The translations under genes and the position numbers were made by a program. The notes below the pieces were generated by a model. The model saw only the letters and a list, made by a program, of their open reading frames with translations, did not search any database and was not told the DNA's origin. From NCBI GenBank assembly GCA_963665115.1, contig OY762007.1:4160001-4224000 (forward strand): 64,000 nt of DNA, in the 5' to 3' direction. Shown here piece by piece: positions 3,526-58,030 of this stretch; position 1 is the first letter of the stretch; each line of letters starts with the position of its first letter. The DNA is from an uncultured Rivularia sp. (GTDB lineage Bacteria > Cyanobacteriota > Cyanobacteriia > Cyanobacteriales > Nostocaceae).

Positions 3526-5213
3526 AAATATGTTTTATCTTTAAAATAAAATACCCTAAACTGTTTGTAGAGAACAATTTTAAGCAAATTAAATGTTCTT
3601 TACAAGCAGTTATTTTTTAGGGCATATTTAGGATGAAAAAGGTGCATCAAGAAGATTTAGATGATTTATTTGAATATTTTGAAGTTCCGGCAAGCACCGA
3701 TGGAAGCTACATGGGTACACAAGCTCAGGTGAAAGCAACGCAAGAATATATGGATAAAATAATTGAGGAGAAGCTTACAAATATAAATGCAAGACTCAAG
3801 GCGAGTCAAAGCAAGGTAAGTATTAAAAAAGTTGGAAACACTCTACAGTTAAGAGCTACTCTTCCGTTAAAACCTGGCGATACTAATAAATCGGGGAGAA
3901 CTAGAAAGCAATACTTTATCTCTTTAAGTATTCCAGCGAATTTGAACGGATTAAAAACAGCTGAAGAAGAAGCTAATGAATTAGGCACGCTGATTGCAAG
4001 AAAATGCTTTGAATGGAATGACAAATATCTAGGTATAAATACAAATAAACAGGAGTATAAAACTTTTAAGCAAGTATTAGAAACTTTAGAAAATGAATAT
4101 TTTAGTACTAGAAAAAGAACTATTAAGAGCGAGCATAGTTTTTGGCATTTGTATAAACGATATAAACAATATTTTGAATCAAATTTACCAGTTACCAGTG
4201 AAAATATCATTACAATTATTAGAAATATTGGTTCCCCGACATCTCGCGACCAAGCAATCAGAGTCGCTAGGGTATTTTCTCAAATTCATCAAATAGAAGT
4301 CAATTTCAAAAATTTAAAATTGCCTGTAGTCCCTAATGATAGGTATATACCTTCAGATATTGAAATTACAGAAGCTTTTGGAAAATATAAGGTAAAAGGC
4401 AATAATACAAAAGTAAGGAAAGACTATCGAAACTCTTGGAAGCTACACAGGTTAGTATTTGGACTAATTGCTACCTATGGTTTAAGACCGCGTGAGGTAT
4501 TTAATCAACCCGATTTAGAATGGTTTTTAAGTGATGAAAATACCGATTGTACTTGGAAAGTTCATAAGTCAAATAAGACAGGTTACAGAGAAGTTTTGCC
4601 TTTTATACCAGAATGGGTAGAATTATTTGAATTAAAAAATCCAGAGGCTATTTATTTATTGAATCAAAAAATAGAACAGATAACAAGCTTTCATGAATTA
4701 TCACACTTAGTTCAAACTAATGCTCGATGGTTTAGACGCATTCTAGATCTACCGTTTGAACCTTACGATTTAAGGCACGCTTGTGCGATTAGAGCGCATA
4801 TTCAAGGTTTACCAATCAAAGCATCAGCAGATAATTTGGGGCATTCTGTAGAAATGCATACTAAAGTCTATCAGCGTTGGTTCTCTTTAGAAAATCGCAA
4901 GAAAGTTATGAAATCTGCAATCAACAAAAAATCAGATGAACAGTTAGAAGCTGAAAATATCAGGTTAATGGCAGAAAATCAACAACTGAAATACCAATTG
5001 GATAAATTACGGCAAATTTCATCAAATATTCGCTAAAAGTTCTTCAATTAGGGTAGATTTAGGATTCATCAAACCCAAGCATAATTAGCAATTTGATTTA
5101 CTGTTTTAATTTTTAGGGAGCTTGTTTAGGGTAAATTCAGGTTACTCGACTGCGGAGGTTTGCGAAACTACTGTTATATAGATTTTTCAGCAGTCGAAGA
5201 ATATCACGATTAA
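3519..5213. mobile_element. nifD excision element 1 (1,688 bp; direct repeat CGATTAA at 3519-3525 and 5207-5213)
   Basis: Excision restores GGT CCG ATT AAG GAC ATG = GPIKDM in frame; recombinase is the only gene inside. Confidence 0.92.
3633..5036 (+). CDS. XisA/XisC-like tyrosine recombinase of nifD element 1
   Basis: YGLRPRE, YDLRHACAIR, LGHSVEMHTKVYQRWF motifs. Confidence 0.93.
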   Translation: MKKVHQEDLDDLFEYFEVPASTDGSYMGTQAQVKATQEYMDKIIEEKLTNINARLKASQSKVSIKKVGNTLQLRATLPLKPGDTNKSGRTRKQYFISLSIPANLNGLKTAEEEANELGTLIARKCFEWNDKYLGINTNKQEYKTFKQVLETLENEYFSTRKRTIKSEHSFWHLYKRYKQYFESNLPVTSENIITIIRNIGSPTSRDQAIRVARVFSQIHQIEVNFKNLKLPVVPNDRYIPSDIEITEAFGKYKVKGNNTKVRKDYRNSWKLHRLVFGLIATYGLRPREVFNQPDLEWFLSDENTDCTWKVHKSNKTGYREVLPFIPEWVELFELKNPEAIYLLNQKIEQITSFHELSHLVQTNARWFRRILDLPFEPYDLRHACAIRAHIQGLPIKASADNLGHSVEMHTKVYQRWFSLENRKKVMKSAINKKSDEQLEAENIRLMAENQQLKYQLDKLRQISSNIR

Positions 5214-6343
5214 GGACATGATCCACATCAGCCACGGTCCTATCGGTTGTGGTTTCTACTCTTGGTCTGGTCGTCGTAACTACTACATTGGAACCACAGG
5301 TGTTGACTCCTTTGGTACAATGAACTTTACTTCTGACTTCCAAGAAAGAGACATCGTTTTTGGTGGAGATAAGAAGCTCGCCAAAATGATTAACGAAATT
5401 GAAGAACTCTTCCCCCTCAATAGAGGCGTATCAGTTCAATCTGAGTGTCCCATCGGTTTGATTGGTGATGACATCGAAGCGGTTGCTAAGAAGGCATCCA
5501 AAGACCTTGGTAAGCCAGTTATCCCCGCTCGTTGTGAAGGTTTCCGTGGTGTGTCTCAGTCTTTAGGACACCACATCGCTAACGATGCTATTCGTGACTG
5601 GGTATTCCCTGCTGCTGATAAAGCTCACAAGGAAAACACCCTTGATTACGAACAAGGTCCTTACGATGTATCAATCATCGGTGACTACAACATCGGTGGT
5701 GACGCTTGGTCTAGCCGTATCCTCTTAGAAGAAATCGGCTTGCGCGTAGTCGCTCAGTGGTCTGGTGATGGTACTCTCAACGAGATGATGCTCACACCGA
5801 AGGTGAAGATGAACTTGATTCACTGCTACCGTTCGATGAACTACATTTCTCGTCATATGGAAGAAGCTTATGGTATTCCCTGGATGGAATACAACTTCTT
5901 CGGACCTACCAAGATTGCTGAATCTTTGAGAGCGATCGCCGCTAAGTTCGATGAGAAAATCCAAGAGAATGCTGAGAAGGTTATTGCTAAGTACCAGCCT
6001 ACAGCTGATGCAATCCTTGAAAAATACGGCGCTCGTCTAAAAGGCAAGACTGTTGCTTTGATGGTTGGTGGTTTACGTCCTCGTCACGTAGTACCTGCAT
6101 TCACAGACTTGGGAATGGAACTTGTAAGTACTGGTTATGAATTCGGTCATAACGATGACTACAAGCGTACTACCAACTACATTGAAAACGGAACCATCGT
6201 TTACGATGACGTAACTGGTTACGAATTCGAGCAGTTTGTAAAAGGACTTAAGCCCGACATCGTTGGTGCTGGTATTAAAGAGAAGTATGTCTTCCAGAAA
6301 ATGGGTCTTCCCTTCCGTCAAATGCACTCTTGGGATTACTCCG
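5207..6343 (+). CDS. nifD: NifD fragment 2
   Basis: [13 protein letters not shown]...SECPIG...LIHCYRS...[10 protein letters not shown]. Confidence 0.96.
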
Positions 6344-6947
6344 AGCTTACTAATGGTAGTAGAAGTAATACAGAGTGAGCTTTTTAGGGGTTATAAAATT
6401 AAGTAGATTAACTTTAGACTTTAGATTAAATATTAGATTTTAATTACAATAAGATATTTTTTGACCGACACTATAACAAGTTTATTTTATCAAGTTATTT
6501 GCATCAATTAATATTGCGTGTTCTGGAAACTGTAAATTGTAAACCTTTATTGACTACGATTTTTTAGACTAATTTTTTATTGGCTTCGTGATTTTTAATA
6601 GTTTATGCTCTTCCTAAATCTTCTTTTTCAGCTATCAGAAACTTCGTAACAATTAATTAGTAGATTTCACGTATAAATTAAGCTTGTTAAATTTTAAAGC
6701 TTTGTATTATAAACAATAAATTAAAATTTGGCAATAGTCTGAGGTATTAAAAGTGGGTAGATTTTATTTAAATAGAGTATGCTGACAAGCAAGCAAATAG
6801 CAAATACAACAAACAAGAATAAATCATAAATTAATCAATACTATCTTCCATTGGGTTGATACTGCAATCTTTATCTGAGGCTAAATAAAGTAGAAGTATT
6901 GAGCAATCGGGAAAGATTTTCTTGTCAATGAATGAATATGTTTATTT

Positions 6948-56612: not shown

Positions 56613-56674
56613 AGGGAGCAAGATGCTCCCACTACTCTCTATATCTCCCATGCCCAATGCCCTATGCCCAATCT

Positions 56675-57775
56675 TTATGCAGTCCGAAAACGCGCTAATT
56701 CTTCACCCGTTTTTGCGTCGTGGGCGTGTACGGTACATACCAAACAAGAATCAAAGGAACGCGCTACATGACCTATTTCTACTGGATCTGTTGAGTCAAA
56801 AACAGGTGTACCGATTAAAGCTTCTTCGATGGGGCCGCGTTTTCCTTCAGCGTCACGAGGACCAATATTCCAAGTCGAAGGAGCCATAATTTGATAATTT
56901 TTAATTTTGCCACCTTCGATATCTATCCAGTGACACAAAGCTCCTCGCGATGCTTCGGTAGCACCCCAACCGCGTCCGTCTTGTTCTTTGGGTTTGATGT
57001 ACCAAGGATCGTTTAAGCGAAATTCTCTGAGACAACGCTCGGCTTGACGGTAAAGCTTAACAACTTCATGGACTCTTGCTAGCTGTCGTAGATGGATACT
57101 AGCACCACCCATTTGCTTGAAAGCGTCAAGGATAAATCCATCATAATGTTGCCAAGTTTCGCCGTGAGTGCCACCTGCTACCAATTGACGCGCCAAGGGG
57201 CCAGCTTCCAAGCGTCCGTAATCGATGTGAGTTACCGCAGTTCCCCAAGAATAGGCCGCATCAAAATCTTTAGCATTGTTTTGAGTAGGTCGAGTATTGC
57301 GATCGTAAGGGTGAACGTCTCCCGTACCTTCGTCATACCAGGAATGTGTGGTGTTTTCCCGAACAAAACCATGATTCATGGGAGTATGAGTATCGCTGTA
57401 GCTGTCATACACTCCACTTTTCATAATCATAGCGGCATTTCGCCCTTCAACGGTGGGTTTTTGATATTTCACTTCATGAGGTAAATATCCCCAAGTGACA
57501 TATTTACCCAAGCCCGCACCATATTTATGCAAACCGATATCCAAACCCATTCGCCAATAAAAACCCAAATCGGAATTAGCATGACTCGGACTTTCATCCA
57601 GCCAAATCATAAAATCCTCATAGGTTTGAATTTCTTCATAGCGTTCCAAAGAACAACCCAACCAAACTGGTTCGAGCCAATTAGTACGGAAATATTCCAG
57701 AATTGACCAAGCGCGGGTTACGTCGGTTAAAGTCGGAGCGCACATCACCCCACCGGGCACCATATAACTGCTATG
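56675..57775 (-). CDS. hupL: Uptake hydrogenase large subunit HupL, 3' fragment
   Basis: HSSYMVPGGVMC...RSFDSCLVCTVH; begins at site CATAGCAGTTATATGG. Confidence 0.96.
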   Translation of the reverse strand, partial: HSSYMVPGGVMCAPTLTDVTRAWSILEYFRTNWLEPVWLGCSLERYEEIQTYEDFMIWLDESPSHANSDLGFYWRMGLDIGLHKYGAGLGKYVTWGYLPHEVKYQKPTVEGRNAAMIMKSGVYDSYSDTHTPMNHGFVRENTTHSWYDEGTGDVHPYDRNTRPTQNNAKDFDAAYSWGTAVTHIDYGRLEAGPLARQLVAGGTHGETWQHYDGFILDAFKQMGGASIHLRQLARVHEVVKLYRQAERCLREFRLNDPWYIKPKEQDGRGWGATEASRGALCHWIDIEGGKIKNYQIMAPSTWNIGPRDAEGKRGPIEEALIGTPVFDSTDPVEIGHVARSFDSCLVCTVHAHDAKTGEELARFRTA

Positions 57776-58030
57776 GGAACGGGCGATTTGCTCAGAATGT
57801 TCGTAAATAACTTATTGATAAGGCTTTGATGATATTCGCTAACAGTTTTTTTCGAGCGTTTGAGCTTATAAATAAGGGAATATTTAGGGAAAAACATTAT
57901 GCCCTTCCGCCAGGAGAGGAGTGCCCGAAGGCGGGGTGAGGTTTCTATTTCATCTACCTATACAAAGAATCGTTTACCAATACATTTGCGAATTTGTACC
58001 ACTAAACACCACAGACGGTAGCTATAGGGA

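Follow-up and report, generated by a model that had tools for sequence, protein, structure and literature searches.

The window analysed here is the whole 64,000-nucleotide stretch of contig OY762007.1 (positions 4,160,001 to 4,224,000) from an uncultured Rivularia species. It holds the nif cluster and hupL, which are interrupted by six elements (nifD-1, the large nifD element with xisA, nifK-1, nifK-2, nifN, and the hupL element with xisC). Each element carries a tyrosine recombinase of the XisA family. The six recombinases share 40-58% pairwise identity, and the nearest named relatives are Rivularia. Outside the window, this genome has three further close XisA-family genes, next to fragments of nifB, nifH, and coxA. 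A pair of short palindromic boxes is found upstream of all nine genes, including these three. We describe the boxes as part of a cassette shared by the family, with NtcA as the best candidate for the protein that binds them.

Paired boxes at the recombinase-proximal ends

The original prediction listed 13 boxes of the form TGT-N9-ACA at the recombinase-proximal ends of the six elements, and all of them were found where it had placed them. Its statement that most boxes outside xisA carry one mismatch also holds: the three xisA boxes and the box at 3562 are perfect, and the other nine have one mismatch each. The predicted geometry was recovered as well. Neighboring boxes are spaced by 32 (nifD-1), 16 and 16 (xisA), 31 (nifK-1), 33 (nifK-2), 31 (nifN), and 32 bp (xisC). 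The gap between the core repeat and the nearest box is 36 bp in nifD-1, 32 bp in xisA, 35 bp in both nifK elements, 37 bp in nifN, and 22 bp in hupL. In the four small elements, the recombinase ATG lies 107, 113, 114, and 114 bp from the core.

Comparison with the AT-rich background, proposed together with the boxes, gave a divided answer. Over the whole window, loose TGT-N9-ACA pairs are not significantly enriched (12 seen, against a mean of 7.2 in 200 local shuffles, 8% of which reach 12). At the element ends, pairs are rarely expected by chance: when the sequence of each end is shuffled 2000 times, a pair arises in only 0.65-1.15% of the shuffles, and all six ends have one. Single boxes also occur elsewhere in the window. 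A perfect one in nifK-1 (36936-36950) lies downstream of the recombinase, and no comparable distal box was seen in the other elements. A strong one (matrix score 15.8) lies at 50084-50098, 3' of an iscA/hesB-like gene in the nif cluster.

Distribution across the recombinase family

For the family comparison, 77 named loci gave 91 recombinase matches and 85 distinct upstream regions. A pair was defined as two TGTT-N7-AACA sites with at most two mismatches, 31-33 bp apart. Such a pair precedes 61 of the 85 XisA-family genes from named genomes, whereas dinucleotide shuffles give a mean of 0.25 and a maximum of 1; none of 80 downstream regions contains one. The box spacings cluster at 16, 31, and 32 bp. 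As read from these regions, the refined motif is TGTTY-N5-RAACA, which is tighter than TGT-N9-ACA.

A matrix built from other genomes, whose training set included orthologues of some of the elements studied here, places all nine elements of this genome among the top 24 pair hits in 8.7 Mb, and eight of them within the top 11. When 28 further loci were scored, 25 had a pair score of at least 12, compared with 0 of 280 shuffles; some of the xisA loci in this set may overlap the training species. The xisC class was absent from the training, and seven of its nine orthologues in the set scored at least 12. Of the three loci below this score, L310 is a near miss, L311 contains inserted repeats, and L331 belongs to the nifH class; here and below, L, G, and C numbers are our handles for loci, genomes, and contigs. 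In sequence terms, the boxes are a real, conserved feature.

The single motif is less informative than the pair. TGTT-N7-AACA alone shows no intergenic enrichment in this genome (76 sites, 1.18-fold), and many single genome-wide hits, which were rejected as sites, are heptamer repeats. The top pair hits away from xis genes were also rejected as regulatory sites: six were inspected, and five lie inside predicted open reading frames (ORFs) and one across a start codon. The exact double-box pattern matched in 4 of 151 genomes and was too strict to inform.

The pair is also missing from other kinds of recombinase loci. None of 30 serine-recombinase loci, not all of them confirmed excision elements, has a pair in the 260 bp scanned upstream (about 45 bp in one locus); eight have a single scattered hit. 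Two serine-recombinase genes of this genome (C1:4141213 and C1:4227262, beside nifH and hupS/hupL fragments) have no element-side box. Among distant or tRNA-type relatives, no pair was found in nine loci (L078, L079, and L091-L097) or in two of this genome, and several of these pairless relatives retain tandem repeats ahead of the ATG, as judged by eye. Because serine loci and distant relatives lack the pair, the cassette is, by its distribution, a property of tyrosine-type elements and not of all excisions. The proposal that one factor synchronises all excisions was thus too broad, since neither the two serine elements of this genome nor the 30 serine loci carry a box pair.

Two of the distant relatives, L078 and L079 from the non-Nostocaceae genome G045, encode XisA-like recombinases of about 31-33% identity, with arm-type repeats and no box pair. 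L079 adjoins an interrupted universal-stress-like ORF.

Predicted promoter and arm-type repeats around the boxes

The anatomy of the cassette was examined in the 72 of 85 regions with a pair score of at least 12, which fall into 23 classes at 68% protein identity. The parts follow a fixed order: core repeat, -35/-10-like hexamers, box 1, box 2, a repeat pair with an 11-bp period, and the ATG. Box 2 lies three helical turns past box 1, and some elements have a third box between them. The first T of box 1 is the last T of the -10 hexamer. In 45 of 72 elements, which represent 20 of 23 classes, TAN3T begins 5 bp ahead of box 1; at the same offset it is found before box 2 in 7 of 72 and at the cphA box in 0 of 30. 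A TTGACA-like hexamer at -29 is present in 23 elements (16 classes), separated from the -10 by 18 bp. Both hexamers together occur at box 1 in 29 of 72 elements (18 of 23 classes) and at box 2 in 4 of 72. Of the 23 class representatives, 15 have both, whereas 5000 shuffles average 0.41 and never exceed 4. In this genome, six of nine elements have the -10, and four of these are in the window (nifD-1, nifK-1, nifK-2, and nifN). With hexamers 17-19 bp apart and a site overlapping the -10 and the predicted start, box 1 has the placement expected of an operator on a predicted sigma70-type promoter.

The repeat pair after box 2 is element-specific and has a period of 11 in 60 of 72 elements. It begins 10 bp after box 2 in 34 of the 55 elements with a called arm, and 5-10 bp after it in 54 of 55. 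Automatic calling of core repeats in the 72 loci is noisy, and core distances rest on the window and a few clear classes. In nifK-1, nifK-2, and nifN, the arm-type pair is found again close to the distal core; in nifD-1, xisA, and xisC, the distal pair is weaker or was not found. In the first three elements, these predicted arm-type tandem repeats thus stand on both sides of the core, as in att sites of the lambda type.

The recombinase may also have a domain that fits such repeats. The model of the Xis N-terminal domain is a three-strand sheet plus a helix (pLDDT 94). It is weakly similar to residues 8-64 of lambda Int (Z 4.2, root-mean-square deviation (rmsd) 3.5, 56 aligned) and to the arm domain of the HPI integrase, 3jtz (Z 4.1, rmsd 2.7, 57 aligned); these Z scores tie with unrelated rows and fall below the reliability range of the tool. 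A Foldseek search with the domain gave no hit at E<=0.001. The positions of the cassette parts in the window are listed in Table 1.

Table 1. Core repeats, boxes, predicted promoters, arm-type repeats, and recombinase genes of the six elements (window positions; scores are matrix scores)
Feature	Position	Strand	Remarks
nifD-1 proximal core repeat, CGATTAA	3519-3525	+	partner 5207-5213
nifD-1 predicted -10, TAAACT	3557-3562	+	last base is first base of box 1; -35 weak (3/6)
nifD-1 box 1	3562-3576	.	score 16.6
nifD-1 box 2	3594-3608	.	score 14.1
nifD-1 tandem repeat pair, likely arm-type recombinase sites	3618-3634	+	11-bp period
nifD-1 XisA-family tyrosine recombinase	3633-5036	+	467 aa
xisA (large nifD) element distal core repeat	6333-6343	+	
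xisA	34700-35965	-	low end approximate; C-terminal end frameshifted near 34865
xisA triple box, 16-bp period	36106-36152	.	scores 4.8, 9.2, 14.8; -10 not in usual register
xisA proximal core repeat, GGATTACTCCG	36185-36195	+	partner 6333-6343
nifK-1 distal core repeat	36716-36724	+	
nifK-1 distal arm-type repeat pair	36786-36802	-	
nifK-1 additional single perfect box	36936-36950	.	score 17.1; ~210 bp from distal core
nifK-1 recombinase	37048-38439	-	463 aa
nifK-1 proximal arm-type pair, TAAGCAA twice	38444-38461	-	
nifK-1 box 2	38472-38486	.	score 11.8
nifK-1 box 1	38503-38517	.	score 14.7
nifK-1 predicted -10, perfect TATAAT	38517-38522	-	-35 weak (3/6)
nifK-1 proximal core repeat, TCCAAGGCA	38553-38561	+	partner 36716-36724
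nifK-2 distal core repeat	38579-38586	+	
nifK-2 distal arm-type pair	38649-38665	-	
nifK-2 recombinase	38926-40314	-	462 aa
nifK-2 proximal arm-type pair, TAGTGT twice	40319-40335	-	
nifK-2 box 2	40346-40360	.	score 14.2
nifK-2 box 1	40379-40393	.	score 12.4
nifK-2 predicted promoter, TTGAGT-18 bp-TAAAAT	40393-40422	-	
nifK-2 proximal core repeat, TACTTCCG	40429-40436	+	partner 38579-38586
nifN proximal core repeat, CCACGGT	43842-43848	+	partner 45728-45734
nifN predicted promoter, TTGACT-18 bp-TAAACT	43857-43886	+	
nifN box 1	43886-43900	.	score 10.7
nifN box 2	43917-43931	.	score 11.5
nifN proximal arm-type pair, TAGTCAA twice	43942-43959	+	
nifN-element recombinase	43963-45351	+	462 aa
nifN distal arm-type pair, TAGTCAA twice	45647-45664	+	
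hupL 16-bp core repeat	57760-57775	+	partner at window-equivalent 66437, beyond window
xisC box 1	57798-57812	.	score 10.6; -10 not in usual register
xisC box 2	57830-57844	.	score 6.1, weak
xisC arm-type pair	57873-57891	+	28 bp after box 2
xisC recombinase	58031-59347	+	438 aa counted from ATG at 58031

The box at host promoters

The same box is conserved upstream of host genes. Upstream of cphA1 it is present in all 30 genera compared, at about -79, apart from the canonical NtcA site found in 26 of the 30. It is also present in 16 of 29 non-Nostocaceae cyanobacteria. No Xis was found in 8 of 32 searched genomes, and all eight keep the cphA1 box. In three lineages, a canonical-length NtcA-type site takes the place of the box at the homologous cphA position. 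A second conserved position is near -255 upstream of cnfR/patB, where the score is at least 8 in 27 of 30 loci and the pattern is present in 29 of 30; many loci have another site about 90 bp further upstream. The protein called cnfR here is presumably that activator, by our own recognition and without a database label. Since the box is kept at cphA1 and cnfR, including in genomes where no Xis was found, its conservation supports a host protein as the binder, and the suggestion of a host factor in the original prediction is borne out.

Other observations concern the surroundings of these sites. Upstream of cphA1 (L273-L302, L337-L366), the box is followed 22-23 nucleotides on by a RARACT-RR hexamer, class-wide. 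In Nostocaceae, an inverted TTGACCGC/GCGGTCAA pair on either side of the box could form an RNA stem, and the box may act as a hairpin in the cphA leader; against such a role, the innermost pair is a C-A mismatch in several copies. Sites seen at psbA and rbcL in this genome were rejected as conserved sites, being present at scattered positions in 3 of 30 and 6 of 30 loci (for psbA, one copy per genome was compared, and two loci had less than 100 bp upstream). Three box-like repeats with a 28-bp period lie between coxA and coxC of the cox2 operon (G000:C1:4669566-4669636).

Identity of the binding protein

Chromatin immunoprecipitation (ChIP) data for NtcA are available from Anabaena PCC 7120, another organism than the present one, at 3 h (PMC3898017, in the part accessible to us; offsets were counted by hand). 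The xisA summit (1700676, NLQ 486) lies inside the middle box. The xisC summit (785602, NLQ 70) lies inside the predicted box 2, which was placed from the element border in Table B of PMC4874684, as far as that source was available, and from orthologue geometry. At cphA1, the box is 22 bp and the annotated site 106 bp away from the summit (NLQ 653), and the summits of three peaks at canonical sites are 17-22 bp from their own sites. A weak peak at the fdxN/xisF border (NLQ 22) could not be linked to a box. Because the summits at xisA, xisC, and cphA1 coincide with the boxes or fall next to them, NtcA, the factor named from the start, is supported as the best candidate, and its binding at the boxes described here is predicted.

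The boxes do not have the form of canonical NtcA sites. GT-N9-AC is present in 64 of 72 cassettes, GT-N10-AC in 5 of 72, and the exact GTA-N8-TAC in 1 of 72. They match the TGT-N9-ACA sequence of non-canonical NtcA sites. In the accessible part of PMC2661322, xisA, rbcL, and gor are listed with such sites, and an NtcA band shift is described for a fragment with a TGT-N9-ACA site, called a weaker site. PlmA was rejected as the identity of the box, since its CGRE1 motif, as given in the available part of PMC6191309, does not match. No motif for PacR or DevH was found in those parts of the literature that were examined.

Proposed regulation of recombinase expression and excision

We propose that the boxes are an NtcA operator pair on a predicted sigma70-type promoter, which would gate transcription of the recombinase at the element end; this reading is about evenly poised between right and wrong. 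NtcA would dock on two phased 15-bp palindromes over the recombinase's own promoter, box 1 covering approximately -7 to +8 and box 2 approximately +25 to +40 relative to the predicted start. As these spans cover the predicted start region, bound NtcA would block the promoter, and xis would be turned on only once occupancy shifts late in heterocyst development. Through its N-terminal domain, the recombinase would next occupy the arm pairs of the two ends and cut at the core, and the bending of DNA by in-phase NtcA dimers may assist the excision step.

Several facts weigh against this proposal. Heterocysts, in which xis has to be expressed, contain abundant NtcA. Excision reportedly fails in an ntcA null mutant, which is unexpected if NtcA is the sole repressor. 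The odd length of the 15-bp dyad is unusual for a CRP-family dimer. The -10 is not in the usual register in xisA and xisC of the window or in the nifH element outside it, and in the xisA class TAN3T is at -3 and the -35 is poor. Taken by itself, the loose -35 test cannot tell the two boxes apart, as it is passed by 38 of 72 elements at box 1 and by 40 of 72 at box 2. According to the accessible part of PMC3898017, xisA is among the NtcA-activated genes, and at cnfR the peak of NtcA is only just detectable (NLQ 9). The ChIP signal may also be indirect, or come from a cross-reacting paralogue or partner.

Some of these facts fit better with an architectural role, in which NtcA dimers bound in phase to the boxes put a bend between core and arm pair, and excision needs high NtcA and 2-oxoglutarate. 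High NtcA in heterocysts, the listing of xisA as NtcA-activated, and the non-excising mutant would all be expected, and bending is compatible with a promoter role. In elements that are not orthologous, the boxes keep nearly constant distances to the core on one side and the arm pair on the other (from core end to box 1, 32-37 bp in five of the six elements of the window), arm pairs with their regular period and offset occur at distal ends too, the Xis N-terminal domain weakly resembles the lambda and HPI arm domains, and relatives that are not heterocyst excision elements keep the tandem repeats and lack the box pairs. However, bending does not need a conserved promoter overlapping box 1, the arm pair of xisC is 28 bp from box 2, and the arm-domain match is below the range in which the tool is reliable. 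Since XisA reportedly works in E. coli and, by the title of Brusca 1990, excises the nifD element from a heterologous promoter, NtcA would not be strictly required for excision. We regard the architectural role as possible and rather doubtful. Of the two options left open by the original prediction, transcription or architecture, transcription control is favored because the geometry is that of an operator pair, with box 1 over the -10 and start and box 2 three turns downstream; repression lifted late in differentiation would be its simplest form. Architecture keeps support from the arm-type repeats at a fixed distance.

NtcA could instead activate xis from the boxes as a class II activator, as its description as an activator of xisA would suggest. 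The RARACT hexamer at cphA has near class II spacing, and TAN3T occurs 21-22 nucleotides after box 2 in 36 of 72 elements. The class II arrangement (site at -41.5, TAN3T 22 nucleotides downstream, room for a start) was nevertheless not found, because the hexamer in these 36 elements belongs to the arm pair as its second repeat and is seen again at distal ends, and in nifD-1 it overlaps the ATG and leaves no space for a transcript start. The best-conserved promoter is also upstream of box 1, not downstream of box 2, and activation of this kind is very improbable. A different host protein (DevH, the vegetative-cell "factor 2", or an unknown regulator) might be the selected binder, with NtcA as an incidental or partner protein. 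Factor 2, found only in vegetative cells, is said (Ramasubramanian 1994) to cover about 68 bp over the xisA sites. The motif departs from GTA-N8-TAC, the recognition helix of DevH (IGSTRVTVTRL) is the same as that of NtcA, and two 4-N7-4 dyads 31-33 bp apart resemble the long footprints of LysR-type regulators. DevH also binds the cnfR promoter (bioRxiv 2020.04.22.054668, in the part available), where the boxes are conserved and the NtcA peak is faint. Against this, the cphA box is perfect in G311 (99% complete, 30 contigs), in which no DevH was found; at the devH promoter, to which DevH binds, all 30 loci have a canonical NtcA site and the box is not conserved; rbcL, the other reported target of factor 2, has no conserved box; and the boxes lack the centered T-N11-A of LysR sites, the centered 13-mer being G-N11-C. 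Co-occurrence had little power before G311, with DevH in 16 of 16 box-bearing genomes and in 27 of 29 overall. We consider such a binder unlikely. Binding by the recombinase itself, to which the confinement of pairs to XisA-family elements and the high conservation of the Xis N-terminal domain might point, is scarcely credible, as is chance: the cphA1 box persists in non-heterocystous lineages and in all eight genomes that yielded no Xis, and the enrichment is far above shuffles.

The preferred operator reading and NtcA-induced bending could also be joined. An arm-type integrase may have been made a developmental switch by phased NtcA sites between crossover and arms, with NtcA as both promoter silencer and excision-directionality bender. 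This synthesis is tentative. It would include a site class, TGTTY-N5-RAACA, that is class-wide at cphA1, family-wide at cnfR, and missed by GTA-N8-TAC scans.

Other features of the elements and their genes

Both xisA and the first nifK fragment are frameshifted by single extra homopolymer bases, at window 34865 and 36557. The extra bases are present in contigs of run X1 and missing from contigs of runs X2, X3, and X4, and for this reason they are probably assembly errors. A like frameshift divides a recombinase at G000:C1:4138017. In run X3, one contig joins the sequences on either side of the nifN element at CCACGGT (window 43841/45728, with 23 letters on the short side), which gives weak support for an excised form of nifN.

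The N-terminal extension conserved in xisC is out of frame with the first ATG, beyond a short GC-rich insertion (57899-58030), and the window xisA is entirely without this conserved extension (35966-36105). The large nifD element contains, at 6948-20226, a nonribosomal peptide synthetase-like cluster with a gene of the phosphoenolpyruvate-mutase/isocitrate-lyase family, a flavin adenine dinucleotide (FAD) oxidase, and a thioesterase, as well as an EF-G paralogue (23247-25337) and a superoxide dismutase (30754-31485). Between two nifH elements lies a 477-aa ORF (G000:C1:4139266-4140696) whose start resembles the arm domain. It has no match to the XisA queries, and a box (13.5) lies inside its 5' end.

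Relation to known systems

Chastain 1990 and Ramasubramanian 1994, going by their titles, are said to be the original descriptions of the NtcA sites at xisA. Binding of NtcA at xisA is already known. NtcA (VF1/BifA) sites of the form TGT-N9/10-ACA upstream of PCC 7120 xisA have been known since 1990 (PMC2661322, PMC8136909, both in part). The family-wide cassette, the element-end promoter, the refined motif, and the conservation at cphA1 and cnfR were not found in the literature searched, including the available parts of PMC4874684, PMC11249958, PMC4284476, and PMC3610870; key older papers and Xu 2025 lay outside this coverage. Nothing bearing on the cassette was seen in the accessible parts of PMC13342950, PMC10068817, PMC12052932, PMC13075795, and PMC3141674. 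As far as PMC4874684 was available, it states that little is known of the regulatory details of nifD-type excision.

The cassette offers base-level targets (promoter hexamers, two boxes, and arm pairs) common to the whole tyrosine-recombinase family, so that a few point mutations can probe repression, bending, and the identity of the binder one by one. It provides a testable switch for how these elements leave only in nitrogen-fixing cells. A second class of NtcA site would reassign published ChIP peaks (xisC, cphA1) and would give cnfR, the master activator of nif, a conserved site as well.

The window xisA boxes are orthologous to the PCC 7120 xisA sites and share their sequence class, triple array, and 16-bp period. 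Those sites were described for xisA only, whereas the boxes here extend to 23 element classes plus xisC, are mostly in pairs, and have the refined TGTTY-N5-RAACA form over a predicted promoter, next to arm-type repeats. NtcA-repressed promoters, such as rbcL, whose row is marked "repressor" in Table S1 of PMC3898017 (available in part), resemble the cassette in that the site overlaps the -10 and start of a sigma70-type promoter, which is predicted here. They differ in having 14-bp sites of the GTA-N8-TAC type, whereas the cassette has two or three in-phase 15-bp sites and its gene must switch on late, at high NtcA. The XisF/XisH/XisI serine elements (fdxN type) are also excised in heterocysts and are present in this genome, but the 30 serine loci have no box pair; the control of such elements is described through XisH/XisI in the accessible parts of PMC4874684 and PMC11249958.

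The cassette can also be compared with phage recombination sites. The att sites of phage lambda combine a core, sites for IHF, Xis, and Fis, all of which bend DNA, and arm-type sites. The elements described here likewise have a tyrosine recombinase, whose N-terminal domain may bind arm sites; arm-type repeats stand in tandem on either flank, and host-factor sites lie between core and arm on one side. Unlike lambda, no excisionase gene is seen in the small elements, and the host factor would be a nitrogen regulator of the CRP family with a predicted accessory role.

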